A stretch of DNA of 64,000 bases from Acidimicrobiales bacterium (GTDB taxonomy: Bacteria > Actinomycetota > Acidimicrobiia > Acidimicrobiales > SZUA-35). A program made the position numbers and the translations under genes. Positions 1 through 56,891 of the stretch are shown here, in pieces; position 1 is the stretch's first letter; each line of letters begins with the position of its first letter. The stretch is from assembly GCA_020628305.1 (NCBI GenBank), contig JAHDFH010000004.1, forward strand, positions 1,727 through 65,726, read 5' to 3'. The notes under the pieces were generated by a model. It did no database searches. It was not told the DNA's origin and saw only the letters and a list, made by a program, of their open reading frames with translations.

Positions 1-3695
<3,695 letters not shown>

Positions 3696-8729: not shown

Positions 8730-8731
8730 CG

Positions 8732-8953
8732 ATGAAAAGTATCATTTTAAAAGTTATCAATCTGTACTCTGCGTATTCAGCGACCAAGCCGGCCCGCTGC
8801 CGTTTTTATCCGAGTTGTTCACAGTTTTGTAGACAGGCTGTGGAGAATCACGGCGCTATGAGAGGCCTTTTCCTCTCCCTAAAGCGGTTTCTACGTTGTA
8901 ATCCCTTTGGATCGTTCGGAATTGATCCAGTACCAGAAAAGAAGTTAGGTTAA
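8732..8953 (+). CDS. yidD: Membrane protein insertion efficiency factor YidD
   Basis: 73 aa with C..YPSCSQF..A....G motifs; located between rnpA and yidC. Confidence 0.9.
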   Translation: MKSIILKVINLYSAYSATKPARCRFYPSCSQFCRQAVENHGAMRGLFLSLKRFLRCNPFGSFGIDPVPEKKLG

Positions 8954-13569: not shown

Positions 13570-13954
13570 TTTACCTAGCGAGAGTTACTGTCGGGGCGTG
13601 GGAAGTTGTGGTAGGTAAACGGCGGTCAATCGGGTAAGTCCGTCTCATGGTGTGTTGTCATGGCGGTGGATCTTGCGCTCATGTGTGAAAAGTTGGGTTA
13701 GCGTCATTGACTGCTAGAAATGGCACCTACAAAGCGTTGTCTCTGTCCTCGTTGTGCTCGTCGGTTCACATTGTTCCACTCGCGTTTGTGGGTTGTGGCG
13801 GGTTACTTTGGTTGTGTTTGGGAATAGTCCTGGGTGTGTTCGGAACCATAAGGTGCACATCTGGTTGGAAAAGGATCCACCATTGGTAGTGGCGCGTGTG
13901 TTAGTGTCAGATCCTTGGTGCAAGATGGTATTGCAAGGTGAAGGAGTGGTTGAG

Positions 13955-14836
13955 ATGGGCTCGGTTGAAACCATACCCAATTCAGTTGTGGTCGGCATTG
14001 GCAAGGGGGGAAGTTGTAAGACGACGCTCTCAACACAATTAGCCGGCATTTGGTCCAGTGAGGGTAAACGTATCCTCCTGGCGGACCTGGATATGCAGGC
14101 TTCGGCCACAAAGGTAGTTGGGCTCGACCCGTCCCAACATGGCGACGGGCGTCATCTAATGGACTCGATTGCGTACGGAGATGAACTAGCAACGGTAAAG
14201 GCTAGAGACGGCCTAGATATTGTCGTAGCGGGGAGGCATACAAAGACTCTCTCTAATCATCTTGTTACAGCTGATACGGCAGCGGAGGCCTTCGCTCTGC
14301 CGTTTCAGAAGGCGGCACTGTCCGGCAAATACGACAGAATTGTGTTTGACCTACCACCGTCGGGATCCTCAAGGCTTGCTGACCTTGCAATGCAGACAGG
14401 CAAGTACCTACTAGTTCCCACTTCTAGCGGGGTTGACAATATTGAAGGACTAAGGGTGCTTGCATCAGAACTTGAGGAATTGGAGAGCAATATCGTACTA
14501 CTGGGTGTTGTTATGATGAAGATTGGGGCCGGAGCCCCCCGAAAGCGGGCTGAGACGAGGCAGCAAGTGTCTGAGATTCTCGCTGGGGTAGCGGATCCGT
14601 TTCAAACCATTATTCGCGACGCCGGCGCTGCCTATGATGACTCTCGCAAAGCCAGCTTGTTCTTACACGAGTACGCAGAATGGGCTACCACAGTCTCGGT
14701 AGCTAGCCAGATTAAGTCCAAGATCCGAATACCGGGCAACCTCGCGGATCTAGCTAGGGAGTTCTATGAGCTTGCAGATGAAGTCGATGATCGCATCGCT
14801 AAAGCCGACGAGTTACTAGGAGGCGGAGATGTCTGA
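13955..14836 (+). CDS. Second, divergent ParA/MinD-family ATPase (plasmid/ICE-type partition ATPase)
   Basis: Deviant Walker A GIGKGGSCKTTLS, LLADLDMQ, VFDLPPSG. I prefer ATG 13955, preceded by AAGGAG at 13941-13946, over the ORF-track start 13754. Confidence 0.85.
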   Translation: MGSVETIPNSVVVGIGKGGSCKTTLSTQLAGIWSSEGKRILLADLDMQASATKVVGLDPSQHGDGRHLMDSIAYGDELATVKARDGLDIVVAGRHTKTLSNHLVTADTAAEAFALPFQKAALSGKYDRIVFDLPPSGSSRLADLAMQTGKYLLVPTSSGVDNIEGLRVLASELEELESNIVLLGVVMMKIGAGAPRKRAETRQQVSEILAGVADPFQTIIRDAGAAYDDSRKASLFLHEYAEWATTVSVASQIKSKIRIPGNLADLAREFYELADEVDDRIAKADELLGGGDV

Positions 14837-15440
14837 AAAAACTCTTAAGGGAGCAAGAGGGCTCAACTCCATCGCCGATCCAGCTAGTTTTAGGGGAGCG
14901 ACACGCAGATCAGAACGCTCGTCTAAGGCAGCTGATGAGAGTTCCTCAAAGCCAGCACCTGTTGTCGACCTCGTAGAGGCCAAGGTAGCTAGCCCGATCA
15001 GTAACACTCAAGAAATGGGCACCAAAGCGGGGGAGAGGAAGCAAGCTGCGAGCAATCACGAAGCCCTGAAGAGTGCTCCGAGCTCCACAGTTAGCCAGCC
15101 TCAACGTTCTCGCCGCGAGTTAACCGTGCCGTATAAAATCCATGACCTGCTTGAAGCTACTATGCAAAACGCAACGGATGTTGTTATGCGAGCAGTGCGC
15201 AACCACGGTGAAGAGATTATGGCAGGGGATTACGCCAGAGGAATAGACAAGGGGCGCAAGCGTTTGCGGATTACCATGTCTGATGAGCAATTTGCAAAGA
15301 TAGCAAAGATTGGGCGAAGTCGGGGCTGGAACCAGTCCGAGACAGTAGCTGTCCTTTTGTTTGCAGAGCTTGGACAGACAGAGCTTCAAAAAGCGGAAAG
15401 AAGGGGAGAGGAAACGAACCTCTCACCCTTCCCCATTTAG
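14829..15440 (+). CDS. Hypothetical partner of the second ParA: disordered basic N-terminus and a C-terminal ribbon-helix-helix-like segment
   Basis: 8-nt overlap with the ParA-like gene. C-terminus KRLRITMSDEQFAKIAKIGRSRGWNQSETVAVLLFAEL fits a beta-alpha-alpha (RHH/ParG/MobC-like) pattern. Function is inferred. Confidence 0.55.
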   Translation: MSEKTLKGARGLNSIADPASFRGATRRSERSSKAADESSSKPAPVVDLVEAKVASPISNTQEMGTKAGERKQAASNHEALKSAPSSTVSQPQRSRRELTVPYKIHDLLEATMQNATDVVMRAVRNHGEEIMAGDYARGIDKGRKRLRITMSDEQFAKIAKIGRSRGWNQSETVAVLLFAELGQTELQKAERRGEETNLSPFPI

Positions 15441-34356: not shown

Positions 34357-34558
34357 TATTTACCACCTTTCGCCGAGCGCCAGTCTAGCCGAATTAGCAC
34401 AGTTTCCGTGCTTTCATAGATGGTGGTAGTACGAGGTCAATCAACCTAGCATCATGTAGGTGGTTGTACCCGCAGGTGGTGAAATTCCTTTCTGTGTGCT
34501 TTTCACTGTGATAATCTCTAAGTAAAGCCAAATTAGGCGTTAGTTGAGGCGGGTAATC

Positions 34559-34996
34559 ATGAAAGTGCTGAAACATTTAGCAGAGAGACTATCTTTGTCC
34601 GTGAGTGTTGGGCTGCTGGCCCTATTGATGGTGGCGGGCTCAAGCTCAGTCGCATCGGCGCAGCCACCAGGAGATCCGTGCAGAGAGGCGGGCACTTGTC
34701 CCCAACCAGGTGCATCTGGGCTTCCAGAGACAACGTCTGCTTCGCCTCCTGGTTTGGGGCCTGTGTTTGAGGCTGTGTTGAGTTGGACTAAGTGGATTGC
34801 TGGTGCTGCTGGTTTGGGTGGTATTTTTGTGATTGCGATCATGATGATGATTGGTCGTCGTAATAGGTCTCAGTTGGCGGCTGATGGTATGTCTGCTTTG
34901 CCTTGGATTGTTGGTGGGTTTATCTTGATTGGTATTTCTGCTGCTTTGGCTGAAGCGTTGTTGTCTGCTGGTGCTAGTGCTCCAGTGGAATTCTAA
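34559..34996 (+). CDS. Pilin-like small membrane protein, paralog 1 (signal peptide, Pro/Cys-rich segment, two TM helices)
   Basis: MKVLKHL..GLLALLMVAGSSSVASA|QPPGD; C-terminal WIAGAAGLGGIFVIAIMMMIGRRNRS..WIVGGFILIGISAALA. This topology is typical of TrbC/VirB2-like or actinobacterial small T4SS-associated proteins. ATG 34559 preferred to TTG 34544. Confidence 0.7.
   Translation: MKVLKHLAERLSLSVSVGLLALLMVAGSSSVASAQPPGDPCREAGTCPQPGASGLPETTSASPPGLGPVFEAVLSWTKWIAGAAGLGGIFVIAIMMMIGRRNRSQLAADGMSALPWIVGGFILIGISAALAEALLSAGASAPVEF
34744..34980 (+). repeat. Copy A of a perfect 237-bp direct duplication
   Basis: Base-by-base comparison with 35072-35308 shows 237/237 identity; offset 328 bp. Confidence 0.95.
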
Positions 34997-35006
34997 GAAA
35001 GGAAAG

Positions 35007-35324
35007 ATGATCATGTTAGCTGAACTATCTTTAGTATTGCTACAAGATATACCGACCGCAGAGAGCATAGCGCCTCCTGGTTTGGGGCCTGTGTTTGAGG
35101 CTGTGTTGAGTTGGACTAAGTGGATTGCTGGTGCTGCTGGTTTGGGTGGTATTTTTGTGATTGCGATCATGATGATGATTGGTCGTCGTAATAGGTCTCA
35201 GTTGGCGGCTGATGGTATGTCTGCTTTGCCTTGGATTGTTGGTGGGTTTATCTTGATTGGTATTTCTGCTGCTTTGGCTGAAGCGTTGTTGTCTGCTGGT
35301 GCTAGTGCGCCGGTGCAATTTTAG
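35007..35324 (+). CDS. Pilin-like small membrane protein, paralog 2 (different N-terminus, no obvious signal peptide)
   Basis: GGAAAG then ATG 35007: MIMLAELSLVLLQDIPTAESIA followed by 79 residues identical to paralog 1, diverging only at the last 4 aa. Confidence 0.6.
   Translation: MIMLAELSLVLLQDIPTAESIAPPGLGPVFEAVLSWTKWIAGAAGLGGIFVIAIMMMIGRRNRSQLAADGMSALPWIVGGFILIGISAALAEALLSAGASAPVQF
35072..35308 (+). repeat. Copy B of the perfect 237-bp direct duplication
   Basis: Identical to 34744-34980. Confidence 0.95.
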
Positions 35325-35335
35325 TCGGCGAACTC

Positions 35336-36133
35336 ATGGCGGCGGGATACTCACAAGGACAAGCAAAGTTAATAATGACTTTCTTGGTGGCGATTGTGGC
35401 AATAGTCGTCATAGGGTTGCCCGTCTATTTGGTAACTACAGCCGATGAGGGTTTTATTGGTAAGCCCGATGTCGAGTCAACAGCAAGATCATCCTCGACC
35501 ACGCTAGCTGTCGAGCAATCGGGGGAAGCGATAGCCGACGCAGATACGACCTTAGTGACTTCATTCAACCATGTCGAATATTTCACACAAGCTGAGCAGA
35601 TGACTATCCTAATTCAGCCGCAGGGTTACACGTTTGAGACGATAGATGAGTTTTACTGGTATCCAGTCAGTTCTGAGTTTGGGCCATCGGTGTTTGATCA
35701 AGGAAGTTCAGCAGGTTTCGCCAGAACTCCCGAAGGTGCAGCCTTGGCGGCAATTCATCTGTATTATCGCACTTTGCCTACTCTACCTTCCTGGCAGAGT
35801 ATCGCCGAGAGTCATTTAGTTGGCCCGGGGGTACGAGCAAGGATCGACAACGGGATTGAGCTTCAGTCGTCCGTGAACGACGTAAAGGAAGTCTTTGCCC
35901 TTAAAGAGGCACCGGTTGGTTGGGATATTCTTGACTATAGCGAGTCAGCCGACAGCGCCACCGTTGCGGTGTATGGAGATGACATTAACTCAAAAAGTCC
36001 CTTCGTGCGTACTTTACGAGTTGTGTGGCAAGATGAGGATTGGCGTTTAGTAGTTCCCGCGGACAATGAATTCGAGTTGTCTCGTAGTTTTGGAGAACCC
36101 AATGACGTCTCATTCGTAGGAAGCTTCCGCTGA
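35336..36133 (+). CDS. Membrane-anchored protein of unknown function in the T4SS-like operon
   Basis: N-terminal TM LIMTFLVAIVAIVVIGLPVYLV, then a soluble domain of about 220 aa; the stop overlaps the next start (TGATG). Confidence 0.6.
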   Translation: MAAGYSQGQAKLIMTFLVAIVAIVVIGLPVYLVTTADEGFIGKPDVESTARSSSTTLAVEQSGEAIADADTTLVTSFNHVEYFTQAEQMTILIQPQGYTFETIDEFYWYPVSSEFGPSVFDQGSSAGFARTPEGAALAAIHLYYRTLPTLPSWQSIAESHLVGPGVRARIDNGIELQSSVNDVKEVFALKEAPVGWDILDYSESADSATVAVYGDDINSKSPFVRTLRVVWQDEDWRLVVPADNEFELSRSFGEPNDVSFVGSFR

Positions 36134-37077
36134 TGATGGATATTGATGGGGTAATCGAAGCCGGCGTTGGCAAACTTTGGGAGTTCAGTGGCGGTGTCTC
36201 GGCCGACTTTGTCCTTGCCCCTATTAAGGCGGCCTTTCATGGCATCATAGCTGTGATTGCTGAGTTCTTGAGCGAGTCGATTATTTTTTGGATGGAAAGC
36301 TATGCTTCCGCCTTTTTAACGGAGGGGTCCCTTATTACAGAAGGTTGGGACAGTGTTGCGGTTGATATTCGAACACGGCTTTGGTACATCTCTGCGGTCA
36401 TGGTGGCGGTTGGCGTGGTTTGGCAATCTTTGCGAATCATTTGGAACAAAAATGGCGAACCACTTGCACAATTGATAAAGTCCACAGCCATTTTCATCTT
36501 CGTAGCAGGATCAGGACTCGGCTTAGTTCAAGCTGGCTCTTTTGCAGCAGATGAATTAACTAGGTCGTTTCTTCAAGCCGATGGCTTTTCAGTGATCGAT
36601 ACTTTTGAGAACGTCGGTTTCGCATCACCGGCTCGTCTATTTGTACTACTGTTCGGCATGGTTCCCTTTGCCCTCGTCATGGGTTACATCTGGGTGGTGA
36701 CCTGGGCGAAGGATATATTGGTTGTGGTAGCGAGTGGTGCTCTAGTTCTGGCCGCTTCCGGCCAATTTTTCGGCTTCTCTCGTGAGTGGCTTAACAAACT
36801 GGTCGGTACCTTGGTAGCTACGCTACTTTACAAGCCTGGTATCGCTTTTGTCTTGTCGTTAGGTCTCGAGATCATCAGGAGTGGTGGTGTGATAGGTCTC
36901 ATTCTGGGGCCTCTAATTACAATTGCTGGGGTGTGGGCAGCTAAGCCGTTGCTGAAAGTTTTCACGTCCATCAACTATGCAGGCAGTATTGGGTCTGGTC
37001 AGTCGTTCGGTACAGGTGCAATCGGTAGTCGGTCGACGGGCTATAGCGCTGCTATGCCAACAGGGATCGACCGATGA
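36133..37077 (+). CDS. Polytopic membrane protein, VirB6/TrbL-like
   Basis: 314 aa with about 6 hydrophobic helices and a Gly/Ser-rich tail. Size, topology and position next to pilin-like genes match TrbL/VirB6 of actinobacterial T4SS loci. Confidence 0.6.
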   Translation: MMDIDGVIEAGVGKLWEFSGGVSADFVLAPIKAAFHGIIAVIAEFLSESIIFWMESYASAFLTEGSLITEGWDSVAVDIRTRLWYISAVMVAVGVVWQSLRIIWNKNGEPLAQLIKSTAIFIFVAGSGLGLVQAGSFAADELTRSFLQADGFSVIDTFENVGFASPARLFVLLFGMVPFALVMGYIWVVTWAKDILVVVASGALVLAASGQFFGFSREWLNKLVGTLVATLLYKPGIAFVLSLGLEIIRSGGVIGLILGPLITIAGVWAAKPLLKVFTSINYAGSIGSGQSFGTGAIGSRSTGYSAAMPTGIDR

Positions 37078-37610
37078 GTGTTTTACGGGCCATGGTCCTT
37101 TCAATCCTCTTGGTTCTCGGTGCCCAAAATAGCGCTTCGGCATTGCCTGTGTTTCAAGACGCTGAAGCCTTTGATCGATGTGAGCCGAGTGAGCGTTCAC
37201 AGACCCAAAGAGAGGATGAGGGCGAAAGGGATTCAGCAGACGAAGGCTCGGACGAGGACGAGAACATTGAGTCTTATCTTCCTGATGCCAAATGCGAGAC
37301 TGAAAACTTGAAGGATGGACTTCGTCTCGACTTCGGATGTGATGCTTCTTGCGACCGGTCGCAAACCATGAAATTGGTCGGTCAGATATTGGGATATGTG
37401 AAGTGGTTTGCTGGTTTCGCTGGCGTGGGAGGATTCTTTTTGGTTGCAATAAAGCTCATGGTGGACCGTCGAAATCGGTCAGCCATGGTCGCTGACTCTT
37501 TGACGGCACTTATGTGGATATGTGCAGGGTTAGTTTTACTAGGTTTGGGCACGGCTCTAGCCCAGGAGATTGTGGATACTGCCTTAACAGCATCCACTAT
37601 TGATTCGTAG
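37074..37610 (+). CDS. Pilin-like protein, paralog 3 (signal peptide, acidic Cys-containing domain, conserved 2-TM C-terminus)
   Basis: MSVLRAMVLSILLVLGAQNSASA|LP; C-terminal WFAGFAGVGGFFLVAIKLMVDRRNRS...WICAGLVLLGLGTALA is homologous to paralogs 1 and 2; ATGA overlap with the upstream gene. Confidence 0.7.
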   Translation: MSVLRAMVLSILLVLGAQNSASALPVFQDAEAFDRCEPSERSQTQREDEGERDSADEGSDEDENIESYLPDAKCETENLKDGLRLDFGCDASCDRSQTMKLVGQILGYVKWFAGFAGVGGFFLVAIKLMVDRRNRSAMVADSLTALMWICAGLVLLGLGTALAQEIVDTALTASTIDS

Positions 37611-37725
37611 TTAAAATTGCCCATAAACCGTTGGGCTAAGCGTACCAATTGCCAGATTCTTCTTTTAGGTAGCTCTGGCGTTGTGATAATCTTGTATCAA
37701 TGAGGTGGCAGCCTCGGGAGACTTC

Positions 37726-39228
37726 ATGGCGGATCAAGTATTTGGCGAAATGCGAACCTACGGTGGTTGGCGCAGAAAGCGTGGCTTAGGATTCTTTGGC
37801 CTGTCACAAATTGAGTCAGGTGTTGCATTTATCATCGCATTAGTCTTTTTTATAATTCTGGCAAGAGCTCGAGTCATCCTTATACCAAGCGCAATAGTTA
37901 CTTTTCTGGCCCTCGGTTCAATGGCAAGGGTTGATGGTCAACCAGTTTGGCAAGTTGCATGGATCGAAATAATGATGTTGCGTTCAGCAGCAGCCGGTGG
38001 TGGAACATTTCGGTCTGGTTACTTTTCTGGAAACGCAGCTGGCTCAGGTGACGATCTTCCCGGGGCACTTGCTCCCACACGCACCTATGCAGTTCAGACT
38101 GACGCAAGGCGTCCGTACGGGGTCGTCTACAACGACTCTTTACAGACAGCGACCGTTACCTGGCGTGTTCATCCGCATACCCCGCACTTGGCTGATCAGG
38201 AGCAGGTTGATGTTTGGGTTGCATCCTGGCATCAGTTCCTAGCCTCTTTGGGCTATATCGACCAGATAGCACACCTTCAGGTCACGGTAGCAACAGCGAC
38301 AGAACCTGGCGCAGTGGTTGCTGAAAATCTGGCTGCTAGTCGAGCTTCTAACGCTCCGGCCCTGGCACAGAACTTGCTCAATGAGTTGGCAGCCCGCGAA
38401 AATAGCGGGACAACAGTCTCAAGTACCTTCATCTCAGCGACTTTTGATACGCGGTACGGCCCAGCTGCTCGTGAGAAAGACCCTGCGGTTCGCATTCAAC
38501 ATGTTGTTGGTTTGGTAACCGCCATGAACCAAGATATTCGTACAAGTGGTCTTGCGTCCGCTAGTTTGTTGACAGTTCAGGAGTTAGCAGCTCAGAACAA
38601 AGGAGCTTTCGTTCCGTCCCTCCGAAAGCCTTTGGTGGAGGCTTTGCGCCGCGGTGATACATCTGCGTTGCAGTGGCATATCTCTGGACCCCGTATGGCC
38701 GAATCCAACCGTTACTACTATCGTCACGATGAAGCTATAACTATTGCATGGACTCTCAAGGAGGCACCACGTGGTCACGTCACAGAAGAAGTTCTATACA
38801 ACCTAATGTCTCCAGGTACTTTTCCGAAGAGAGTCACCTTGACGTGGAACCCAACGCCTGCTGAGAAGGCCGCTCGAATTCTTGAAAATGAGCGCACGAT
38901 GAATGAAGCAAAACGTTTGGTTAAGGCTAGAGGGATGCGGGATGAAAGCGCTCGAGACGAGTATGACCGGCAAGCAACTGAAATGGCAGCAGCGGATGAA
39001 GCAAGAGGTGCCGGATTGGGCGATTTCATGATTTCAGTCGCAACTACCTTTGAAGTATCTCCCGATATTACCGATGAGCAAATCGATTCTCTCATTGATC
39101 GGGCAAGCGTAGAGATTGAGTCAAGAGCAAAACAATCAAAGATGTTGTTGCGCCCAGCATATGGATTTCATGATGCTGTTCTATTCTCGTCGTTACCAGC
39201 TGGGATCAATCCCACAGTGTTGAATTAG
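37726..39228 (+). CDS. SCO6880-family-like T4SS-associated membrane protein
   Basis: N-terminus ..YGGWRRKRGLGFFGLS followed by two TM helices and a soluble domain of about 400 aa. Family name is from memory of actinobacterial ICE annotation. GGGAG precedes ATG 37726; an alternative GTG lies at 37705. Confidence 0.6.
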   Translation: MADQVFGEMRTYGGWRRKRGLGFFGLSQIESGVAFIIALVFFIILARARVILIPSAIVTFLALGSMARVDGQPVWQVAWIEIMMLRSAAAGGGTFRSGYFSGNAAGSGDDLPGALAPTRTYAVQTDARRPYGVVYNDSLQTATVTWRVHPHTPHLADQEQVDVWVASWHQFLASLGYIDQIAHLQVTVATATEPGAVVAENLAASRASNAPALAQNLLNELAARENSGTTVSSTFISATFDTRYGPAAREKDPAVRIQHVVGLVTAMNQDIRTSGLASASLLTVQELAAQNKGAFVPSLRKPLVEALRRGDTSALQWHISGPRMAESNRYYYRHDEAITIAWTLKEAPRGHVTEEVLYNLMSPGTFPKRVTLTWNPTPAEKAARILENERTMNEAKRLVKARGMRDESARDEYDRQATEMAAADEARGAGLGDFMISVATTFEVSPDITDEQIDSLIDRASVEIESRAKQSKMLLRPAYGFHDAVLFSSLPAGINPTVLN

Positions 39229-39238
39229 GTGTTGGGTT

Positions 39239-47985: not shown

Positions 47986-49443
47986 GTGGTGGAAGTGTTC
48001 TTCCGGAATGGTGTTGGCAAGGTAGTGATCTTGCTTGCTGTGCTCGCTTTTTTCGCTGTTTTTGTTTACGCCTGTGGCGGTTCCGACGATTTAGGCACCA
48101 GTCCGGATGGGGTCGAAGTAGATCGCTCAAGTGATGGACTTGAGAACGGCCTGAATGGATCTGCCACGACGTTTCGAGGAAGTTCGCGGGAAAGTCAGTC
48201 GGCAAGTCAGGTGATTGTCTCAACCGATTACAGAACCAACCTTGCGCTTCTTAAAGCTGGGCCATATCGCAACACTAACCATGACGACAGCCCTTACGCT
48301 GATGTTCCATCGGATCAACTCAATCCGGAGGATCATTATGGTCCTCGGTCAGAGTATCTAAACGACCCTGGGGATAACCCAGAGCAAACATTTCCAGTAG
48401 CTTCCGGCGGCCAGTTTCGTGCCGGTTGTGAGTTTTCACACTTTGGCTACGACGATCCAATAGTGTTCCCAGATCAGCCAGGGGCAGCTCACCTTCACAT
48501 GTTCTTTGGCAACACCGACGTAAACGCGTATTCAACCTATGAGACTCTCATCAACTCAGGAAGCTCAACGTGTAATGGCCAGGAACTGAACAGAACTGGC
48601 TACTGGGCCCCAGCAATGTTTGATGGGCAAGGTAACGTTCGAATTCCTGAACGAATAGTGGTCTATTACAAAGGTGAGGGGTTAGCAAACGGTCGAGCTG
48701 AAGTTTTTCCTGAGCGTGCTGCAATGATTGCTAACCCTGCAATGACTCTAGAAGGCGATATCAACGCGATTGCCCCGAATGTTGGGGGCGCTGCCGGAAA
48801 ATCATCTTTTAAATGTTCTGACAATTTCTCGGGTCCTGAGAGCCCTGTTTCTAACACAATGATCAGCTGCGATGGGAATCGTTACACGATTGGTAACGCA
48901 GTAAATCGAACTGTCCTAGAGATGAATGTTAAGTTTCCTCAGTGCTGGAACGGTGAAGATCCGAGCGATCCTAGCAACTTCCGTATTCCCAGAGTCGGCG
49001 GCTGGTACTTTAGCGAGTGCGAAGAGGATCGTACGCTAGTTAACCTTGAGTACTTCATAAACTACGTCGTTGAGCCAGGGGAGAACACTGCAGATTGGTT
49101 CCTGTCTTCGGATGTTGATCCGATGAATTTCAATGTTGGCGCCAAAGGTGGCACGGTACATGCTGACTGGTGGGGTGGCTGGCACAAAGAGACCAATCAG
49201 CTCTTTATCGATAACTGCGTTAACAATAACTCATACAGCGGCTGCGGTTTTGGTTTCTTGACTAGTGGTGCGAATGGTGAAGATGGTCCAGCTCTGCAGT
49301 ATCGCCCACAATATGAGGGGCCAAACAAGGTGCCAGCAGCGGAGCTTTTCGAGGCACTCTGTCCTCAGGCTAAGCATTCTTATGACTTTGGCAATTCAGC
49401 CACGGCGGCCTACTGCACCCCAGCAGGACAAAACCACGGCTAG
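47986..49443 (+). CDS. Secreted/lipoprotein DUF1996-like protein
   Basis: Signal/lipobox AVFVYACGG. Motifs ..DDPIVFPDQPGAAHLHMFFGN.. and ..YWAPAM.. are typical of DUF1996 (from memory). Confidence 0.6.
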   Translation: MVEVFFRNGVGKVVILLAVLAFFAVFVYACGGSDDLGTSPDGVEVDRSSDGLENGLNGSATTFRGSSRESQSASQVIVSTDYRTNLALLKAGPYRNTNHDDSPYADVPSDQLNPEDHYGPRSEYLNDPGDNPEQTFPVASGGQFRAGCEFSHFGYDDPIVFPDQPGAAHLHMFFGNTDVNAYSTYETLINSGSSTCNGQELNRTGYWAPAMFDGQGNVRIPERIVVYYKGEGLANGRAEVFPERAAMIANPAMTLEGDINAIAPNVGGAAGKSSFKCSDNFSGPESPVSNTMISCDGNRYTIGNAVNRTVLEMNVKFPQCWNGEDPSDPSNFRIPRVGGWYFSECEEDRTLVNLEYFINYVVEPGENTADWFLSSDVDPMNFNVGAKGGTVHADWWGGWHKETNQLFIDNCVNNNSYSGCGFGFLTSGANGEDGPALQYRPQYEGPNKVPAAELFEALCPQAKHSYDFGNSATAAYCTPAGQNHG

Positions 49444-49454
49444 TCAGAGGCACC

Positions 49455-49517
49455 TTGGGGGACAGGTCCCAATGGTGCGCCAAGGAATGTTGGGGGACAG
49501 GTTCTAATGGTGCGCCA
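49455..49517. repeat. Two tandem 28-nt repeats (ttgggggacaggtYcYaatggtgcgcca), period 35 bp
   Basis: 49455-49482 versus 49490-49517: 26/28 identical. Confidence 0.9.
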
Positions 49518-49577
49518 TATGGCCACCAGCGGCGGTGGCCCGTCAGCGTCGGAGCTAGCGGCTAAGCTATAGGAGCT

Positions 49578-50162
49578 ATGACAAGCGGAGTAGTTGAAGA
49601 AACCGGCGAAGTTAAACAGCCATCAAAGCGGTCTATTTCTAATGCCGCCAAGTTACTCGCAGGTCCGATGTCGGCATATAGCGTGCTTGATCGTCTTGAT
49701 TCAGATGAATTGGTAAACATAGCCGCCGTAGCTGCTCAGCTTCAGTCAGAGCGGGCAGTTGCTCGTGGTGATCTGGATGAAATTATTGCCCAAGCCTTCG
49801 AGACTGGCTTCGGCAAAGACAACTTGGCTCATTTACCCTGGATTCATGAAGATGTACTTGTTTGTCCAGGTGGACTGGTGTGGAAGTCAAAGATGAGCCA
49901 CAACTGCCGTTTTGTCAGTATCAATAACACTTGGGTTTGGGACTGCCACGAACTCATTCGGGAAGACAAAAGATCTATCACCGGAACGAAAGACGGGTTC
50001 AGAGCTGTTGCGTTAGTGCCTGTGATTCAAGGCATGCAGGTTGATGCTGTAACGGCTAAAGCTAGGGCGGGACAGCATTCAATGGACAAAGTCATCTCTT
50101 ATGAGATTCGTTCAGGCGAGTTGGTTGAGGTCTCGCAGCGACAGGTCTCAGCAGATCACTAA
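49578..50162 (+). CDS. Hypothetical protein
   Basis: 194-aa ORF with no motif recognised. Its stop lies 1 nt from the convergent kup stop. Confidence 0.5.
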   Translation: MTSGVVEETGEVKQPSKRSISNAAKLLAGPMSAYSVLDRLDSDELVNIAAVAAQLQSERAVARGDLDEIIAQAFETGFGKDNLAHLPWIHEDVLVCPGGLVWKSKMSHNCRFVSINNTWVWDCHELIREDKRSITGTKDGFRAVALVPVIQGMQVDAVTAKARAGQHSMDKVISYEIRSGELVEVSQRQVSADH

Positions 50163-50163
50163 C

Positions 50164-52047
50164 TTATAGCTCTATATGCTGACCAGATTGGGTTGTCTTG
50201 TCGATAGGTAGACCAAAGTAGCGGCTGGCGGAAGTGGTGTTGCGGTAGGTGAAAACGAACAGCTTCTCACGCCATTTAGCCATACCTGGTTTATCGGTCA
50301 CAACAATAGCTTCCCGACCAATGAAGTAGTCAAGATAATCGACGTTCAGGGTTGAGTGTTCGCCGATCGCTTTCGCCACATCGATCTTTTCGCGGTATCC
50401 ATAATGCAAATTCATTTTGTGGAATCCGTGGCGTAGCTCTTCTTGGCGCAACCTTGCAGCTTCGAGAACTGTCGGAGTTCCTTCAACGACAATGGTTAGT
50501 AGATAGACATGTTCGGGAAGGACCTTATGGTGACGCAAGTCTGAGATAAGGGCTGGCGGGATAATTTCAGCTTCACCGGACAGGTAAACGCCGTAGGTGC
50601 CTTCGGTCCGTTGCACATCCTTAGTGTCCAGAGTCTCGATAAATTTGTCTAGGGGCACTGCGCCTTGGCGAAGTCGTTCACGAATGAGCTCTCTGCCTCG
50701 ATGCCATGTCAGCATCAGGATCAGCAGCGCTGTTCCAACAATTAGTGGGAACCAACCACCTGATGGGATCTTTGGAACGTTCGCTCCAAAGAAAGCAACA
50801 TCGACTACGAAGATTGGAAGCATAATTGCAATAGCTTTCGGCAAGCTCCAGCCAAGTATCTTCTGGGAAACTACAAAGAACAATGTGCTGGAGACGATCA
50901 TTGAGATAGTTACTGCAATTCCATAGGCAGCAGCGAGGTTTGAAGCTTTCTGGAAGCCGATAACTAGGCCGACACTTGCGACCATAAGAGCCCAGTTCAC
51001 AGCAGGAACATAGATTTGGCCTTGCTCTTGATCTGAAGTGTGAATAATTCTGAGCCTTGGCAGGTATTGCAAACGAACAGCTTGGAGCGTCATTGAAAAT
51101 GCTCCAGAAATGAGCGCTTGCGAGGCAATGATTGTGGCCACAGTAGCCAGGATGACGAGCGGCCATCTGCCCCATTCAGGTGCCAGAAGGAAGAAGGGGT
51201 TCTCATCTTCAATATTCTGAAGGGTTAGAGCGTTATTGATGATGTAGGCACCTTGGCCAAAGTAGTTCAGAAGTAGTCCTGGCATCACGAACATAAACCA
51301 GCTCTGGCCAATAGGTTTGCGTCCGAAGTGGCCAAGGTCGGCGTACAAGGCTTCGCCGCCGGTAACCACCAGGAAGATCGAGCCGAGAGCAATATAGCCT
51401 GTCCACTGGTTCTCTAAGAAGAACTCAACAGCATATGTTGGACTGACAGCTCGGAGAATTTCAGGCGAGTCAAGGATTTGTAGCACGCCAAGCAGGCCGA
51501 GGGTTGAGAACCATAGCACCATTACTGGGCCGAAGATTCCACCAATCTTGGCGGTGCCTTTCCGTTGGACACTAAACAATCCGACGAGAATAGCAACAGC
51601 AATTGGCACGGTGTAATTCTCTAGAGTTTCAGCTTGGTCACCCATGCCTTCGGCGGCGGCCAGAACTGAAATAGCCGGTGTGATCATGCCATCACCGTAG
51701 ATGAGAGCTGTTCCGAAGATGCCAAGACCAACTAGCAGCATGCCGATTTTTCCATACTGTTTCGGGTTGCCTAATAGTGCAGTAAGGGCAAGCTCTCCGC
51801 CTTCGCCGTTGTTATTGGCTCGAAGAATGAACAACAAGTATTTGATGCATATAACGATGATTAGTGCCCAAGTGACCAGCGAAAGGATACCAAGAACGTT
51901 CTCTTCGCTAGGTGCAACTTCGGAGAAATGAAAGGTTTCTCTAAGCGCATACAGAGGGCTTGTTCCAATGTCACCGAAGACCACGCCTAAAGCCGTGATC
52001 GCCAGGGCCATAGAACCGCTCTTCTGGGCATTGTGTTTGCTAGACAT
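50164..52047 (-). CDS. kup: Kup/HAK/KT potassium uptake transporter
   Basis: Signature ALGVVFGDIGTSPLYAL, 12 TM plus cytoplasmic C-terminal domain, 627 aa. Confidence 0.93.
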   Translation of the reverse strand: MSSKHNAQKSGSMALAITALGVVFGDIGTSPLYALRETFHFSEVAPSEENVLGILSLVTWALIIVICIKYLLFILRANNNGEGGELALTALLGNPKQYGKIGMLLVGLGIFGTALIYGDGMITPAISVLAAAEGMGDQAETLENYTVPIAVAILVGLFSVQRKGTAKIGGIFGPVMVLWFSTLGLLGVLQILDSPEILRAVSPTYAVEFFLENQWTGYIALGSIFLVVTGGEALYADLGHFGRKPIGQSWFMFVMPGLLLNYFGQGAYIINNALTLQNIEDENPFFLLAPEWGRWPLVILATVATIIASQALISGAFSMTLQAVRLQYLPRLRIIHTSDQEQGQIYVPAVNWALMVASVGLVIGFQKASNLAAAYGIAVTISMIVSSTLFFVVSQKILGWSLPKAIAIMLPIFVVDVAFFGANVPKIPSGGWFPLIVGTALLILMLTWHRGRELIRERLRQGAVPLDKFIETLDTKDVQRTEGTYGVYLSGEAEIIPPALISDLRHHKVLPEHVYLLTIVVEGTPTVLEAARLRQEELRHGFHKMNLHYGYREKIDVAKAIGEHSTLNVDYLDYFIGREAIVVTDKPGMAKWREKLFVFTYRNTTSASRYFGLPIDKTTQSGQHIEL

Positions 52048-52096
52048 ATCTATCTTCTACTTCGGCGGCTCCACTCCAAGAATAAGTGTTTCTAAT

Positions 52097-52123
52097 ACGG
52101 TAGGGACGGTCCTATCCGATTTT
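52097..52123. repeat. 27-nt type-2 repeat, copy 2 (acggtagggacggtcctatccgatttt)
   Basis: 25/27 identical to 46384-46410. Confidence 0.85.
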
Positions 52124-52140
52124 TGTGGAGACCATCATGA

Positions 52141-52165
52141 ACACTAGGGACCGTACTACTCGTCC
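52141..52165. repeat. GGGAC-core hairpin repeat, R-type copy (acactagggaccgtactactcgtcc)
   Basis: 22/25 identical to 56704-56728. Confidence 0.75.
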
Positions 52166-52230
52166 ACCCAGTCGGTGTTACTAACTCAGTTTGGGTTAGC
52201 TGGCTAGTCCTGCCCCTTCAACAGGGGGGA

Positions 52231-52257
52231 CCACCTAGACCTGTCCCCGAACGTTCC
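52231..52257. repeat. Inverted, diverged copy of the 49.5-kb repeat (rc = ggaacgttcggggacaggtctaggtgg)
   Basis: Shares GGAAYGTTSGGGGACAGGT with 49484-49502 in the opposite orientation. Forms a ggggac/gtcccc hairpin just downstream of dcd. Confidence 0.6.
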
Positions 52258-52266
52258 TTTTGTGGA

Positions 52267-52827
52267 TTAGAAGTTTTCCCAGTAGCGGGAGGGACGAGGA
52301 CCTTGTTGGCCTTGGTACTTTGAACCAAGAAGCTCAGCGCCGTATGGGTTCTCCGCTGGGGAGCTCATTTGCATAAAGCTGATCTGGCCAATTCGCATAC
52401 CTGGGTAAAGAGTTATTGGCAGGCTGGCAACGTTAGAGAACTCTAGAGTTAGCTGCCCATTCCAGCCGGCGTCGACGAAGCCTGCGGTTGAGTGAATGAG
52501 TAGACCTAGGCGTCCCAAGCTTGACTTGCCCTCTATGCGGCCAACTAAGTCATCGGGAAGCGCAACCCGTTCTAGGGTTGATCCAAGAACAAACTCGCCG
52601 GGATGGAGGATGAATGGATCCATCTCGGACGCTTCAACATTAGTAGTGAGTGAACTCAAGTCCTTCTTGACATCAATGTGACTCATTGTGTGATTTTTGA
52701 AGACGATGAAGCGATGATCGAGGTGAACATCAACCGATGATGGTTGAACCGCCTTTGGCTCATAGGGGTCGATCTCTATGAGTCCCCGTTTGATCTGGGT
52801 CTTTATTTCTCTATCAGAAAGAATCAC
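52267..52827 (-). CDS. dcd: dCTP deaminase (dUTPase-fold)
   Basis: MILSDREI N-terminus, ..QPSSVD..L.., ..GRIEGKSSLGRLGL..H.TAGFVD.GW.G..TLE. Confidence 0.92.
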   Translation of the reverse strand: MILSDREIKTQIKRGLIEIDPYEPKAVQPSSVDVHLDHRFIVFKNHTMSHIDVKKDLSSLTTNVEASEMDPFILHPGEFVLGSTLERVALPDDLVGRIEGKSSLGRLGLLIHSTAGFVDAGWNGQLTLEFSNVASLPITLYPGMRIGQISFMQMSSPAENPYGAELLGSKYQGQQGPRPSRYWENF

Positions 52828-52836
52828 ATCACCAGC

Positions 52837-53751
52837 TTAGTCGGCCTCGGCCAGCGTCTCCACTTGATCACGCCACTCTTTGAGTAGCTGAATGTGGTCT
52901 GGGCCTATGCCGCAGCAGCCACCGATGATTGAGGCGCCGAGTTCTGACCAGATTCTTGCATGCTCAACGTAGCCACGAGCGGTGACATCTTGACGCATTG
53001 GAGTCAAACCTTCATCGTCATCAGGAAGTGAGTTGTCAAAAGCGTTAGCATAAGCGCCAAACCTAGTCGAAGTGTGTTGAAATCGTTTAGCCAAGCCAGC
53101 CAGAGCTACGGTCGCAACTTCTGGTTTTGAACAGTTGATGAGCACGGCATCAACTTTGCCGCTAACTGCTCGACAAACTTGGGAGATAGATTCACCGCTG
53201 TGCAATACGGCTTTGCCATCCACCAGTTCATCAGAAAGAGAGAAACTTGCCCAGTATGGCTTTGTGGAGTTTTGAAAGCGTTTTGTGGAGTCATAGCACA
53301 CTTCAAACTCTTCAATGCTGCCGATCGTCTCTTGTAACCATAAGTCGCAGTACTCATCTTGTGCTCGAACCAGGGTCTGCCAGTACCCCGGGGCAGTTGC
53401 GGGATTGAATTTTTGCGGTTCGTATGAGCCAAACAGCGGCGGTAAACAGCCAGCTACACGCACAACGGTGTCTGCTTCTTCAGCAGCGGCAAGGGCAATC
53501 TGAGCCGCTAGTTCTGTGAGTTCGTAACCTTCTTTGTCGAAACGCTCCTCAAGCGTGTCTGGAACAATGCTGTAGGCGTTGGTTGTAATCACATCGGCTC
53601 CGGCGCAGATGAAATTTGCGTGAGCCTGAGCCACGAACTCAGGCGCCTTCATCAGGGCAAGTGCAGACCATTCAGGGTCTCGAAAGGGTGCTCCCATGGA
53701 TTTGAGCTCTCGACCCATTCCACCATCTAGCAATGTGAACAAACTAGTCAT
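52837..53751 (-). CDS. Homocysteine S-methyltransferase family protein
   Basis: LLDGGMG.EL N-terminus, TNAY, Zn-binding Cys (..INCS.. and GGCCGIGPDHI). Confidence 0.85.
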   Translation of the reverse strand: MTSLFTLLDGGMGRELKSMGAPFRDPEWSALALMKAPEFVAQAHANFICAGADVITTNAYSIVPDTLEERFDKEGYELTELAAQIALAAAEEADTVVRVAGCLPPLFGSYEPQKFNPATAPGYWQTLVRAQDEYCDLWLQETIGSIEEFEVCYDSTKRFQNSTKPYWASFSLSDELVDGKAVLHSGESISQVCRAVSGKVDAVLINCSKPEVATVALAGLAKRFQHTSTRFGAYANAFDNSLPDDDEGLTPMRQDVTARGYVEHARIWSELGASIIGGCCGIGPDHIQLLKEWRDQVETLAEAD

Positions 53752-54024
53752 TGATGCTTCCGGCGAAGTTCATAACTTAATCATCTTATCGGTAATCTGT
53801 TGGCGATAGGGGTCGTACCAATGCGAAACGAAAAGCATGTAGGGGTGATTCCCTGGTGTCGAAATGTAGACACAGAATAGGCTCTTGGGAATGAGTCGCA
53901 AGCCAACTTCGGCCAGCATTCTAGGGAGAATAGTGGTGAAATATCCAGGAGGTACAAGTAAGGTTGGGCGCTCTGCAACACAAGACCCGATTAGTGTTAA
54001 GTGATAACAAATGACGTTAAGTTC

Positions 54025-54051
54025 GGACGGGTAGTACCGTCCCCAGTGTCC
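54025..54051. repeat. Left 27-bp inverted repeat (ggacgggtagtaccgtccccagtgtcc), containing a GGACGG/CCGTCC hairpin
   Basis: Exact reverse complement of 56702-56728. Confidence 0.95.
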
Positions 54052-54080
54052 GGCGTGGGGCGGCCTCCGTTACACTAAAA

Positions 54081-55403
54081 GTGATGGTGGACAATGACGA
54101 GCTGGCGGAGCGGTGGAAGAGTTACAGAGAGGTTTTGAACGAGCTCATTGCCACTCTTAGGTTTGCTCAGAAGTTAGGTTTCGATGTTTCGACGCACCTA
54201 GATCTACTGCATTCTCCTGAAGAGGTGACGAAGCAACAATTGCCTGAAATCAACGTCCTGCCTGTTTGTGCTGATAAGGGTGGCGAAGTTCGACAGCACA
54301 CCCAATGGCCGGCAGAAGAACTTGCGCCACCAGATTTTGAAGACTTGCTTCGTAGATCTTCTGAGCTAGTTGGATACTTGCAAGAAGTTATGGCTGGTCT
54401 GGCTGCGGAGTGTTTCGATTACATTGAGTATCTAAGCCTTGCTGAATCGAAGATCCCACCATTTGAAGCTTTTTGTTTCGAGATGGGAACCCTGCAGCGG
54501 GGGCTTAGAGAGCGGATGGCGAGCCATAGTGTCTTTAAAGCCGCTTACACTACCCTAGCGGAAAGGTTCGTGGCGAAGATCGAGCAGACTTGGGCTGACT
54601 ATAAGATTGTACTTCACTGGCTAGAATCAAACTGCCAAAACTCACTCAATGAACAAACGAGTGAATGGGTCGCAGAGGTCATCGCTCGGCTAGAAGACCT
54701 CTATCTACTTCTTGTTCCTCAAGGGAAGCTGCGACGTGTCCCTATGCTTAGCTCCGATGTTGCTGCGTCGTTAGACTTTGATGATTTGTGGTGGCTGATT
54801 AACCCCACTGGTTCGGCTTTAGATGTGATCGTGAGGATCCAGGAGATTGAGCGGGAGGCAGGACCCGCCCTGTCTGAACCGGAACTAGAAAGGCTCTTAG
54901 AGGTCGAGGACGCATTGTGTGAAGCGAAAAGAGGCACTATCGAGCTGCAGTTACACAACCGGACACCGGCCGCAGATAAGTTGGAGGCAGCACGCGAACA
55001 ACGTGATGAACTTTGGCAACATGTGCAGCGGTTCAGTTCATCTTGCCCAAGGGATGCAACGGCAGAGCTATTGTTAAAGAGTTTGGGTGCAGAGCTGGAA
55101 GAGCTAAACCTTGTTGAGGAGCGCTACGGTGTCAGAACCCTCTACCGTGAACCGTTCGAGGTGAGTGAGGCGATTGAACCGTCCTTTCGAGACTCTTTGG
55201 CGGCTCTCCACTTGGCGATTAGATATGAGGTGGCAGCACTAGATGAACTTGAGCGGGAGCGTGGGTCTTTAGACGAGACAGCGCTGGCCATTCAAGAGCT
55301 CATTGGGCAAACTTGGCGAGGCATTGTTCAGCAGCCAAGGGTAATCCCACCACCCCAAACATCGAATCCAAACAGGCCTGAACAAGGTCCTCCAACGGTA
55401 TAG
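54081..55403 (+). CDS. Orphan acidic, predicted all-helical protein with a Pro-rich C-terminal tail
   Basis: 440-aa ORF, E/L/A-rich, no recognisable domain; first gene inside the IR-bounded segment. Confidence 0.6.
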   Translation: MMVDNDELAERWKSYREVLNELIATLRFAQKLGFDVSTHLDLLHSPEEVTKQQLPEINVLPVCADKGGEVRQHTQWPAEELAPPDFEDLLRRSSELVGYLQEVMAGLAAECFDYIEYLSLAESKIPPFEAFCFEMGTLQRGLRERMASHSVFKAAYTTLAERFVAKIEQTWADYKIVLHWLESNCQNSLNEQTSEWVAEVIARLEDLYLLLVPQGKLRRVPMLSSDVAASLDFDDLWWLINPTGSALDVIVRIQEIEREAGPALSEPELERLLEVEDALCEAKRGTIELQLHNRTPAADKLEAAREQRDELWQHVQRFSSSCPRDATAELLLKSLGAELEELNLVEERYGVRTLYREPFEVSEAIEPSFRDSLAALHLAIRYEVAALDELERERGSLDETALAIQELIGQTWRGIVQQPRVIPPPQTSNPNRPEQGPPTV

Positions 55404-55444
55404 CTCGAGCATTATTTCCACCATTGTGGATGTAAAGTTGTGAT

Positions 55445-55567
55445 ATGGCGGAGAGTTCGTTGCCTGACGTTGAAACCGAGTACAGCAGGTTAATTGTTTT
55501 ACTGTTGCAGGACGTCAACCAATTGGCAGGGCTTCAATTGGATGTTCAGTCACTTTTGATGAAGTGA
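55445..55567 (+). CDS. Possible 40-aa micro-ORF translationally coupled to the next gene
   Basis: My translation: MAESSLPDVETEYSRLIVLLLQDVNQLAGLQLDVQSLLMK. Its TGA overlaps the GTG start at 55564 (GTGA). Confidence 0.35.
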   Translation: MAESSLPDVETEYSRLIVLLLQDVNQLAGLQLDVQSLLMK

Positions 55568-56220
55568 TCAAGCTGCCGTTAGCTGAAGGTCTTTGGCCGA
55601 GAGCTCAGATCGAGTCATCTCCGGCACTTAGGTTGATATCAGCTGAGCAGCTAGTGAAGCCTGGTGAACCGTGGCCAATTTATGGTGAGAGTGTGGAATC
55701 GGTTTCGAGTGTTTTCGACCGGATTTACAAGACATTGGGTGGCCTAACCGTAGTGTCGCACCGTGAATACTTCTATTCTGATTCTGATTCCAATGAGACA
55801 GCCCAAGAGGCCAATATGCTTTTAGGCTTTATCAGTAATGCTGTAGATGAGATACGAGGAAATTTAGCAAAGTCTGGTGAGGCCGATCAATTAGTATTCG
55901 CCGATCTGCTCGCTTCTTGGGCTTTCAGTACAGAGATTGTACACATTCGTGCTTCATCTGATAGAGAGGGTGACACTGCCTTTCTCACCTGGCTCGCTAG
56001 TAGCAAAGAGTTGTTAGACCGCATTTATGACACCCTTGATATTTCAAAGCCTAACTTTGGGATTTCCAAGGGGCTCCGAAGAGGAGTTAAGAATCTACCT
56101 ATTGAGGAGCTGCTCTCACTAGTCAACCCTGAGTTCGAACTTGCAGAGATTATTGAAGCAGTCGGGTTTATCGCTTTACTCGAAGAGGACCAAGAAGCGC
56201 AGCTTTGGGTGAGTGGATAG
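55564..56220 (+). CDS. Orphan hypothetical protein
   Basis: 218-aa ORF, acidic, no recognisable domain. Confidence 0.55.
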   Translation: MIKLPLAEGLWPRAQIESSPALRLISAEQLVKPGEPWPIYGESVESVSSVFDRIYKTLGGLTVVSHREYFYSDSDSNETAQEANMLLGFISNAVDEIRGNLAKSGEADQLVFADLLASWAFSTEIVHIRASSDREGDTAFLTWLASSKELLDRIYDTLDISKPNFGISKGLRRGVKNLPIEELLSLVNPEFELAEIIEAVGFIALLEEDQEAQLWVSG

Positions 56221-56702
56221 TTGAAGCCAAGGGTCATTCCGAGGCTAGGTCACATGGTAGCGAGCCTCAGATTGCAGCGTACTCAGAGTTACTTCATTCT
56301 TTGCATCCGATGATCATCAATCACATTACTCAAATTACACCGCCAACAGAATTGAGAACGTACGAGATAATTCAACAACGTGCCGTAATCCAAGAGAAGC
56401 TTATTACTGCCGAGAAAAGTTTGGGAGTTAAAAGAGACCATGTGTTTTCAGATTCGTGCGAGTGGGATTTTGAGCTACCAATGACTGAGTCGCTGCCGGA
56501 GCTTCTCGAACGCTTTGAGCTGCTAGCCAGAATACAAATAGCTAACCTTGCACAGGCGGGTTGTGATGTTAGAGACGCCCGAATTGGTCTCGTACAGTTC
56601 AGAAACTTCAGAATCAAGTTCAACGCCCCGTTCAGTAACCCCCAAGCGATTAGTGGCTTTAAGCTAGAGCCTCCTGATCAGGGGCAAGGCCCTACCCGTT
56701 AG
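56205..56702 (+). CDS. Orphan hypothetical protein with a Pro/Gly/Gln-rich tail
   Basis: 165-aa ORF overlapping the previous gene by 16 nt (TTG start, uncertain). The stop codon abuts the right inverted repeat. Confidence 0.5.
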   Translation: MGEWIVEAKGHSEARSHGSEPQIAAYSELLHSLHPMIINHITQITPPTELRTYEIIQQRAVIQEKLITAEKSLGVKRDHVFSDSCEWDFELPMTESLPELLERFELLARIQIANLAQAGCDVRDARIGLVQFRNFRIKFNAPFSNPQAISGFKLEPPDQGQGPTR

Positions 56703-56728
56703 GACACTGGGGACGGTACTACCCGTCC
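56702..56728. repeat. Right 27-bp inverted repeat (ggacactggggacggtactacccgtcc)
   Basis: Exact reverse complement of 54025-54051. Confidence 0.95.
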
Positions 56729-56891
56729 GCAGTTGTTGGCAGTTAGTACTATTTCAGTGCAAATAGTCGCTCCCAGAGCTTGTTCAGCATCTTTTATTGC
56801 GGTTTCGTGAAAGCCTAGTTTGGCCGGATATGTCATGTTCCCTGGTGCGTCTCAAGTCTTGTCAGCATAAATATGGCAGAAAGAAGCGAAG

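Follow-up and report, generated by a model that had tools for sequence, protein, structure and literature searches.

Does a pair of perfect inverted repeats around a block of genes mark the ends of a mobile unit, or can such a pair arise from repeats that sit there for another reason? The question is raised by a 2.65-kb segment of contig JAHDFH010000004.1, within the 64,000-nt stretch analysed here (the window). Four tightly packed open reading frames (ORFs), all on the plus strand, lie in it between two inverted copies of a 27-nt sequence. The original prediction, made from the DNA letters and a list of ORFs, described this block as an orphan operon and offered two readings: a non-autonomous cassette mobilised in trans, or an operon insulated by hairpins resembling repetitive extragenic palindromic (REP) elements. 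At a probability of roughly 60%, we favour an account in which the repeats belong to a REP-like extragenic family that punctuates gene ends, and in which they flank an orphan operon that is resident and specific to the lineage, and that probably shares its transcript with the vWA lipoprotein gene downstream.

The 27-mer GGACGGGTAGTACCGTCCCCAGTGTCC is found at 54025-54051 (+), and its exact reverse complement at 56702-56728. These are the two exact matches in the window, with no third site at up to three mismatches, and none of 100 shuffles reached two (0/100). The perfect inverted match is in fact 28 bp long (54024-54051 and 56702-56729), one more than first described, and the arms can be extended to 33 nt with two mismatches (31/33 identical). 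The left arm (54019-54051, minus strand) reads GGACACTGGGGACGGTACTACCCGTCC on its own strand, with the perfect core at 54024-54051. The right arm (56702-56734, plus strand) is an identical canonical copy. Between them, ORF440 (54081-55403, +, 440 aa) begins with a GTG 29 nt after the end of the left arm; the NCBI record calls a 439-aa product, which fits the ATG at 54084. It is followed by a 40-aa micro-ORF (55445-55567, +) coupled through GTGA to ORF218 (55564-56220, +, 218 aa), and then by ORF165 (56205-56702, +, 165 aa), which overlaps ORF218 by 16 nt; both of the latter have the same start in the NCBI record. Such overlapping boundaries are of the kind typical for translational coupling. 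ORF165 ends with TAG, and the right arm starts on the final base of this stop codon. All of this layout agrees with what had been described, as does the position of the block directly upstream of the vWA gene (56892-58448, +), a vWA/YfbK_C lipoprotein gene identified by its Pfam matches. The GC content of the bracketed segment is no different from that of its flanks, and its GC skew is that of the plus-strand neighbours.

The arms are not private ends of the block. They belong to a family of repeats of about 27-35 nt with the core GGGAC(A)GGTmCTA, represented by at least ten copies in five spacers between 46.3 and 56.7 kb, plus a half copy. Aligned, the copies give the consensus G[GA]AC-n-yT-n-GGGAC(A)GGT-m-CTA-nn-[CG]G[TA]. 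Searching with the arm's 3' half gave the first lead to the other spacers. The core GGGACGGTACTA, when two mismatches are tolerated, starts at 46342+, 46390+, 46711-, 52103+, 52147+, 54032- and 56710+; three more copies, distinguished by an additional A, came from an all-against-all comparison of spacers (49450+, 49485+ and, on the minus strand, 52228-52257). Between the arms, 28 of 28 nt agree, and the other copies in the window are about 80% identical to them. The copy at 46334-46360 (+; 22/27 to the arms) overlaps the last codons of a metal-hydrolase gene and is followed by a variant copy, TAGGGACGGTCCTATTCGATTTT, at 46382-46408 (+), whose twin at 52099-52116 was scored as terminator-like. 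On the minus strand, the copy at 46704-46730 lies 3 nt past the MoeB stop, on the sense strand. A tandem pair of 35-nt units, 86% alike, occupies 49450-49513 (+) from 6 nt past the DUF1996 stop. Two copies lie upstream of kup within 52095-52165 (+), a variant one at 52095-52121 and one of canonical type at 52139-52165 (23/27 to the arms); the copy with an extra A at 52228-52257 (-) is found 9 nt past the dcd stop, on the sense strand. The half copy, GGACACCGGGGTC, is at 58454-58466 (+), 5 nt past the vWA stop and just ahead of a terminator.

Likeness among copies ends at about 27-37 nt, and homology extending past this unit, as expected for a MITE (a miniature inverted-repeat transposable element), was looked for and not found. 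Profiles built from the copies recover the known sites with nhmmer, except 52228-52257 (-), and find nothing credible in the first 46 kb of the window or in 161 loci from other organisms. A degenerate 27-mer scan gave 0 matches in the JGI metagenomes and 0 in IMG/VR, and a text search of the literature for the motif turned up no paper. The existence of diverged copies, and the independent occurrence of the family in a sister assembly, lead us to reject an assembly artefact.

Most copies follow a gene on its sense strand: this holds for seven of the ten full ones and for the half copy. There are six gene ends with such a sense-strand copy (those of the metal-hydrolase gene, moeB, the DUF1996 gene, dcd, ORF165 and, with the half copy, vWA), and there the repeat begins 3-9 nt past the stop, or overlaps the stop or the last codons. 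The genes of the first 45 kb have nothing similar after their stops. The right arm obeys this placement just past the stop with respect to ORF165, the last gene of the block. The left arm is an opposite-strand copy in a divergent spacer, which the block shares with the operon of the homocysteine methyltransferase (HMT) gene and the dCTP deaminase gene dcd. Other pairings of the family bracket other things: the inverted pair 46334+/46704- encloses a 343-nt non-coding spacer, and 52139+/54025- the HMT-dcd operon. The arms of the block are oriented opposite to the pair 46334/46704.

Since conservation lies in primary sequence and not in structure, the copies could instead be sites for a regulator, or promoters of extracytoplasmic function (ECF) type (GGAC-N18-CGTC), with the arms controlling the diverging HMT-dcd operon on the left and vWA on the right. 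The 10-bp periodic arrangement G[GA]AC...GGGAC and the local clustering of the copies would suit this, and five of the ten point to a same-strand gene start 65-274 nt away. But an orientation that suits the downstream gene in about half of the copies is the chance level, and the copies keep close to the upstream stop (10 nt or less), while their distance to the downstream start varies widely. Moreover, the sites appear, vanish and duplicate between strains of 94-99.7% identity, and no sigma-factor gene or obvious regulator gene is nearby. We therefore regard control sites as quite improbable. The repeat also shows no evident match to parS, DosR, GlnR or BldD boxes.

The sister assembly, GCA_020628595.1, shows the family in motion. 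Three contigs of this assembly can be matched to the window, with nucleotide identities of 94-99.7%. In the spacer between the DUF1996 gene and orf194, the tandem pair of 35-nt units is represented in the sister by a single unit. The dcd-kup spacer measures 219 nt in the window (52048-52266) and 453 nt in the sister (contig L164, 1359-1811), a difference accounted for by a 25-nt gap and two insertions of about 85-90 nt, each of them located at a repeat copy or beside one. There, the window copy at 52139 is cut to 10 nt, the copy at the dcd end (52228-52257) is conserved, and an insertion of about 85 nt carries a new copy, GGACGGGTAGTACCGTCCCCGATGTCC, which matches the arms at 25 of 27 positions. 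Between strains, the family varies in how many copies it has, in whether a given copy is present and in where a near-canonical 27-mer lies. To judge from this near-copy, the canonical 27-mer looks like a master sequence that appears at new places, and identical copies could then flank an operon without being its ends. The search for the 27-mer in related genomes that had been proposed gives a near-copy at a new place in the sister contigs, and no comparable repeat in the corresponding spacers of more distant relatives. At window position 53669, 82 nt into HMT, the sister contig comes to an end. Its HMT frame is split into calls of 206 and 53 aa, for which a pseudogene or a sequencing error is possible.

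The strain-level changes bear on the first of the originally proposed readings, a mobile insertion cassette (MIC) whose 27- or 33-nt arms would be transposon ends and whose four passenger genes would be moved in trans. Some process that rearranges DNA evidently acts on the family. Perfect inverted arms without a transposase between them fit the definition of such cassettes (PMC3913671), and the genes of the block are missing from the nearest relatives other than the sister. These relatives are metagenome contigs in which dcd is 84-86% identical; one of them (L085) keeps the order dcd-kup-orf194-moeB-hydrolase, and two others keep dcd-kup. However, all of them are without DUF1996, HMT, the four ORFs, vWA, the SDR gene and the GGDEF-EAL gene. 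The whole neighbourhood is lacking, so the absence of the block there is not specific to it, and none of these contigs offers an empty site. The same spacers of these relatives hold no comparable repeat. Elsewhere, a scan of genome contigs with the vWA protein found a best match of 55% identity without synteny, and no HMT homologue exceeds 54% identity or is syntenic.

Nor does the block itself carry the footprint of an insertion. There is no convincing target-site duplication: 49 boundary combinations yielded, as flanking direct repeats, just GTT (3 bp) or AGTT (4 bp, out of register), no more than chance would give. The protein and DNA collections searched hold no further copy of the genes or of their DNA, and blastn of the bracketed DNA against plasmids and phages gave no match. 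Transposase, integrase, invertase and Y1 transposase (including the REP-associated tyrosine transposase, RAYT) are absent from Pfam and NCBIfam scans of roughly 54 ORFs of the window, which bears out, and extends beyond the block, the earlier remark that no transposase or recombinase lies inside it. In addition, codon usage is native, the repeats in other pairings bracket dcd and a non-coding spacer, and the arms face the opposite way from the 46334/46704 pair. The mobile cassette is left unsupported rather than refuted, and we consider it unlikely.

A segment bounded in this way might also flip. In a gene-sized inverton, inversion of the 2.65 kb would switch read-through from an internal promoter between the vWA side and the HMT-dcd side. 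The identical 28-bp inverted arms enclose a segment that adjoins a surface-lipoprotein gene, with no terminator between operon and vWA, and such repeats define invertons (PMC11892184; 10.1101/2023.03.11.532203). Yet no serine or tyrosine recombinase is found among the scanned ORFs, and the opposite strand offers no alternative genes: the minus-strand ORFs inside the segment are all of 83 aa or less, and the reverse-strand frames of all four ORFs have negative coding scores. The GC skew also matches that of the plus-strand neighbours, and the arms are ordinary members of a wider family. Inversion appears very improbable.

Are the four ORFs genes, and are they orphans? A codon log-odds score was trained on 32 long ORFs of the window (mean of the training genes 0.23, sd 0.06). 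ORF440 (0.18), ORF218 (0.25) and ORF165 (0.10) score positively in the stated frame only, and the 40-aa ORF is neutral (0.02). The public protein collection (NCBI source) contains the 439/440-aa, 218-aa and 165-aa products, each as a singleton cluster, but not the 40-aa product. Three ORFs are confidently coding, with native codon usage. The 40-aa ORF is doubtful as a gene: its position and its GTGA coupling stand, but its codon score and its absence from the collection speak against it.

The orphan status is supported. None of the four ORFs has a family match in Pfam, PADLOC, NCBIfam or PHROGs, and PDB sequence searches with ORF440, ORF218 and ORF165 gave nothing meaningful. With ORF440 as query, a k-mer-indexed search of 5.8 billion clusters returned the protein itself and nothing else, as did an exhaustive HMMER comparison with 1.84 billion representatives. 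For ORF218 and ORF165, tblastn against plasmids and phages gave no match. A concatenated query of ORF218, ORF165 and the 40-aa ORF found no match, a weak negative since it also missed their own database entries. No paralogy was seen among the four ORFs or with the rest of the window. As originally stated, there is no assignable motif, and no homology of any kind, whether to a housekeeping complex or otherwise, was found in these searches. AlphaFold2 models made without an alignment are all-helical and too poor for fold comparison (predicted local distance difference test, pLDDT, 43.5 for ORF440 and 36.7 for ORF218), and no signal peptide is predicted for ORF440. The products are soluble and helix-rich, without detectable relatives. 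They are also acidic, as had been remarked, but this is not distinctive, most proteins of the window having a pI of 4.3-5.6. The orphan status is less surprising because the lineage is barely sampled: its ribonucleotide reductase (RNR), DnaB, GyrB, DnaN and SSB are singletons or members of two-member clusters at 90% identity. About fifteen further ORFs of the window are likewise without a Pfam match.

Some signals suggest how the operon may be transcribed. A possible -10 hexamer, TACACT (54071-54076, +), lies 7 nt ahead of the ATG at 54084, and no Shine-Dalgarno sequence is visible ahead of this codon. Taken from sequence reading only, this suggests that ORF440 would have a leaderless start, from a promoter inside the bracket. 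A sigma-70 scan of 53600-57000 found no plus-strand promoter, and a terminator scan of the same region found no terminator-like site. Over 45200-60000, the terminator scan gave ten terminator-like sites, which equals the shuffle expectation; they include 52099-52116 and 58468-58496, and neither arm of the block is among them. Near the repeats, only the variant copy at 52099-52116 and the hairpin at 58468-58505 resemble intrinsic terminators. The latter (+), a 13-bp stem followed by GTTTT, is the first intrinsic terminator of canonical form downstream. With no terminator before vWA and a strong one after it, a single transcript may cover the four ORFs together with vWA. Rfam gave nothing at the gathering threshold, and at a relaxed one a single sub-threshold match at chance level (E 0.19); no tRNAs were found.

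These signals also bear on the idea that the arms act in the RNA. If transcription began upstream of 54019, the two ends of the operon mRNA would pair over 28-33 nt, giving a closing stem for RNase III or for stability, like the processing stalks of rRNA operons. Complementarity is perfect exactly at both ends of the coding block, and a TANNNT-like hexamer, TAGTGT (53992-53997), is present upstream of the left arm. But no promoter has been demonstrated upstream of that arm, the better-placed TACACT lies inside the bracket and would leave the left arm out of the mRNA, and the other copies of the family are not found as such pairs. A closing stem is the least probable of the explanations weighed here.

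The REP-like family that punctuates gene ends accounts for the locus as follows. The bracket would arise as both spacers beside the operon happen to hold the master sequence of the family, in opposite orientations. The elements would spread and turn over like REPs or the "singlets" of miniature transposons, by means of an enzyme encoded elsewhere in the genome, and would be recognised by their sequence and not by a common hairpin; the conserved primary sequence suggests recognition by a protein encoded outside the window. Their role for the host, if any, would be that of boundary elements at gene ends. The operon would be transcribed from inside the bracket, with read-through into vWA as far as the terminator at 58468.

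The family shares traits with REPs, with bacterial interspersed mosaic elements (BIMEs) and with REP doublets forming hairpins (REPINs). The elements are short (20-40 nt), extragenic and mostly just downstream of genes, in unidirectional and convergent spacers. They occur in both orientations, are sometimes clustered, and comprise a master sequence and diverged copies with turnover at strain level. The canonical copy has an imperfect palindrome, GGACGG/CCGTCC, and the tetranucleotides GTAG and CGTC. Published REPs have the same size and the same preference for sites downstream of coding regions (PMC3337134; PMC3733652), and the REP survey (PMC3733652) describes tagged super-families with GTAG or CGTC at one end of the palindrome.

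Several observations weigh against this reading or set the family apart from REPs. The palindromic hallmark of REPs is weak in the family. Only canonical copies form the 6-bp stem GGACGG/CCGTCC, with no U-tract in the 27-mer, and RNAalifold on the ten copies finds 0 shared pairs and no consensus hairpin. Fold z-scores for seven repeat-containing segments run from -0.06 to -2.3, not clearly better than shuffles. Neighbouring copies are direct (46334/46382, 49450/49485 and 52095/52139), 35-48 nt apart, whereas REPINs are inverted with a spacing of 34-110 nt (PMC3337134); the inverted pairs here have spacings of 343 and 2650 nt. In the canonical copy, GTAG falls in the loop and is not an unpaired end tag, and other copies have ATAG, CTAG or TTAG. 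The left arm, 52095+ and 52139+, which make up three of the ten copies, do not follow a gene in its sense direction; they lie upstream of, and antisense to, kup and ORF440. No RAYT, the Y1 transposase that mobilises REPs, or other transposase is present in the window. The copies are all confined to about 12 kb and absent from the remaining 46 kb, a distribution that differs from the even scatter of a genome-wide family; the repeat-free 46 kb consist of a conserved origin region and a conjugative-type block. The sequence surveyed for copies comprises the 64-kb window and three sister contigs of 1.4-2.1 kb. The 28/28 identity of the arms needs either two recent master copies or homogenisation by gene conversion to be assumed. 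Finally, the host is probably actinobacterial, while REPs are predominantly found in Proteobacteria according to the survey (PMC3733652). The family is called "REP-like", and not a member of the REPs or REPINs, because the shared palindrome and the inverted doublets both fail. The second of the original readings stands to the extent that the family is extragenic, mostly past stops and strain-variable; its insulation by hairpins is unsupported, given the absence of shared pairs, the weak z-scores and the missing U-tract.

Other known systems share some traits with this locus. Like MIC231, mic-qnrD and bacterial MITEs, it has inverted ends, passenger genes, no internal transposase and a size of a few kb that is in range; but there is no target-site duplication, no cognate insertion sequence is known and none was found in the window, the block is single-copy, and its arms are members of a family of solo repeats whose similarity ends at about 27-37 nt. 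The G segment of phage Mu and invertons in general have inverted repeats of about 30 bp, a segment of about 3 kb and an adjoining surface-protein gene, but the present segment lacks an adjacent invertase and alternative coding on the other strand. As with the attC cassettes of integrons, in which orphan cargo is common, a repeat stands at the 3' end of gene units. Here, however, there is no integrase, no attC-like fold and no conserved R'/R'' cores, gene orientations are mixed, and the units include the core genes dcd and moeB.

Should the preferred reading hold, the locus has revealed a new family of short extragenic repeats, with turnover visible between two strains, in a lineage that is poorly sampled and probably actinobacterial. 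A perfect inverted pair around genes need not mark a transposon. To our knowledge, REP-type elements are not well described in this actinobacterial group. The four orphans with native codons add to the lineage-specific genes, which may originate by fast divergence or by birth from non-coding DNA. Greater importance would require proof that the repeats mobilise or invert segments of gene size. There is a small chance that the 27-nt element is the recognition end of an active DNA-mobilising enzyme, and that the inverted pair makes the operon a composite cassette able to move in trans or to flip. REP-like singlets would then serve as ends for gene-sized cargo, seeding lineage-specific gene content.

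Some further observations concern the spacers and genes around the family. The convergent metal-hydrolase and moeB genes are separated by a 366-nt spacer without ORFs (46368-46733), with three family copies, two of them inverted and 343 nt apart, and a palindrome, AGCTATATAGCT, at 46680-46691. This spacer could hold a small RNA or a miniature element; Rfam finds nothing in it. The DUF1996 gene (47986-49443) and the tandem repeat pair behind it are missing from L085, where orf194 and moeB are adjacent. This makes it a second lineage-specific gene whose 3' end carries family repeats. Just past the SDR stop, at 58921-58945, there is an AT-rich palindrome of 25 nt, AAACTTAAAGTT(A)AACTTTAAGTTT, of a kind distinct from the GGGAC family. 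In two high-GC relatives (contigs L099 and L096; dcd 75% identical), GGGACGATACTA and GGGACGATCCTA occur in promoter-like spacers, at 3427-3460 and 19556-19585 of L099 and at the same places in L096, conserved between both contigs. One of these sites is upstream of a purA-like gene. They are probably unrelated to the family, because the number of matches is what chance predicts.

Apart from ordinary metabolic genes, the scans showed two larger regions in the window. Positions 1-34000 are the region of the chromosomal replication origin, with an Actinomycetota-like gene order. On the minus strand come gyrB, recF, dnaN and dnaA, followed by an 893-nt oriC-like spacer (8061-8953). After this spacer are found yidC, jag, gidB, parA, parB, a trxB-like gene, a Ser/Thr kinase gene, pcnA and PBP1, and further on rpsF-ssb-rpsR-rplI, dnaB and the class I RNR genes. 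Beside the canonical parAB near the origin, 13754-15440 encodes a second ParA-like ATPase (360 aa) and a 203-aa ORF without Pfam match. From 34500 to 45216 lies a block of ORFs mostly without Pfam match, with a TraG/VirD4 coupling protein (41101-43203), a DUF4913 protein (43257-43655) and a weak VirB4-like P-loop protein (39239-41101). It looks like the type IV secretion module of a conjugative element; no integrase, relaxase match or att repeats were seen in it. At its left edge is a 253-nt direct repeat (34743-34995 and 35071-35323), 98% identical and 328 nt apart, which duplicates part of two small ORFs.

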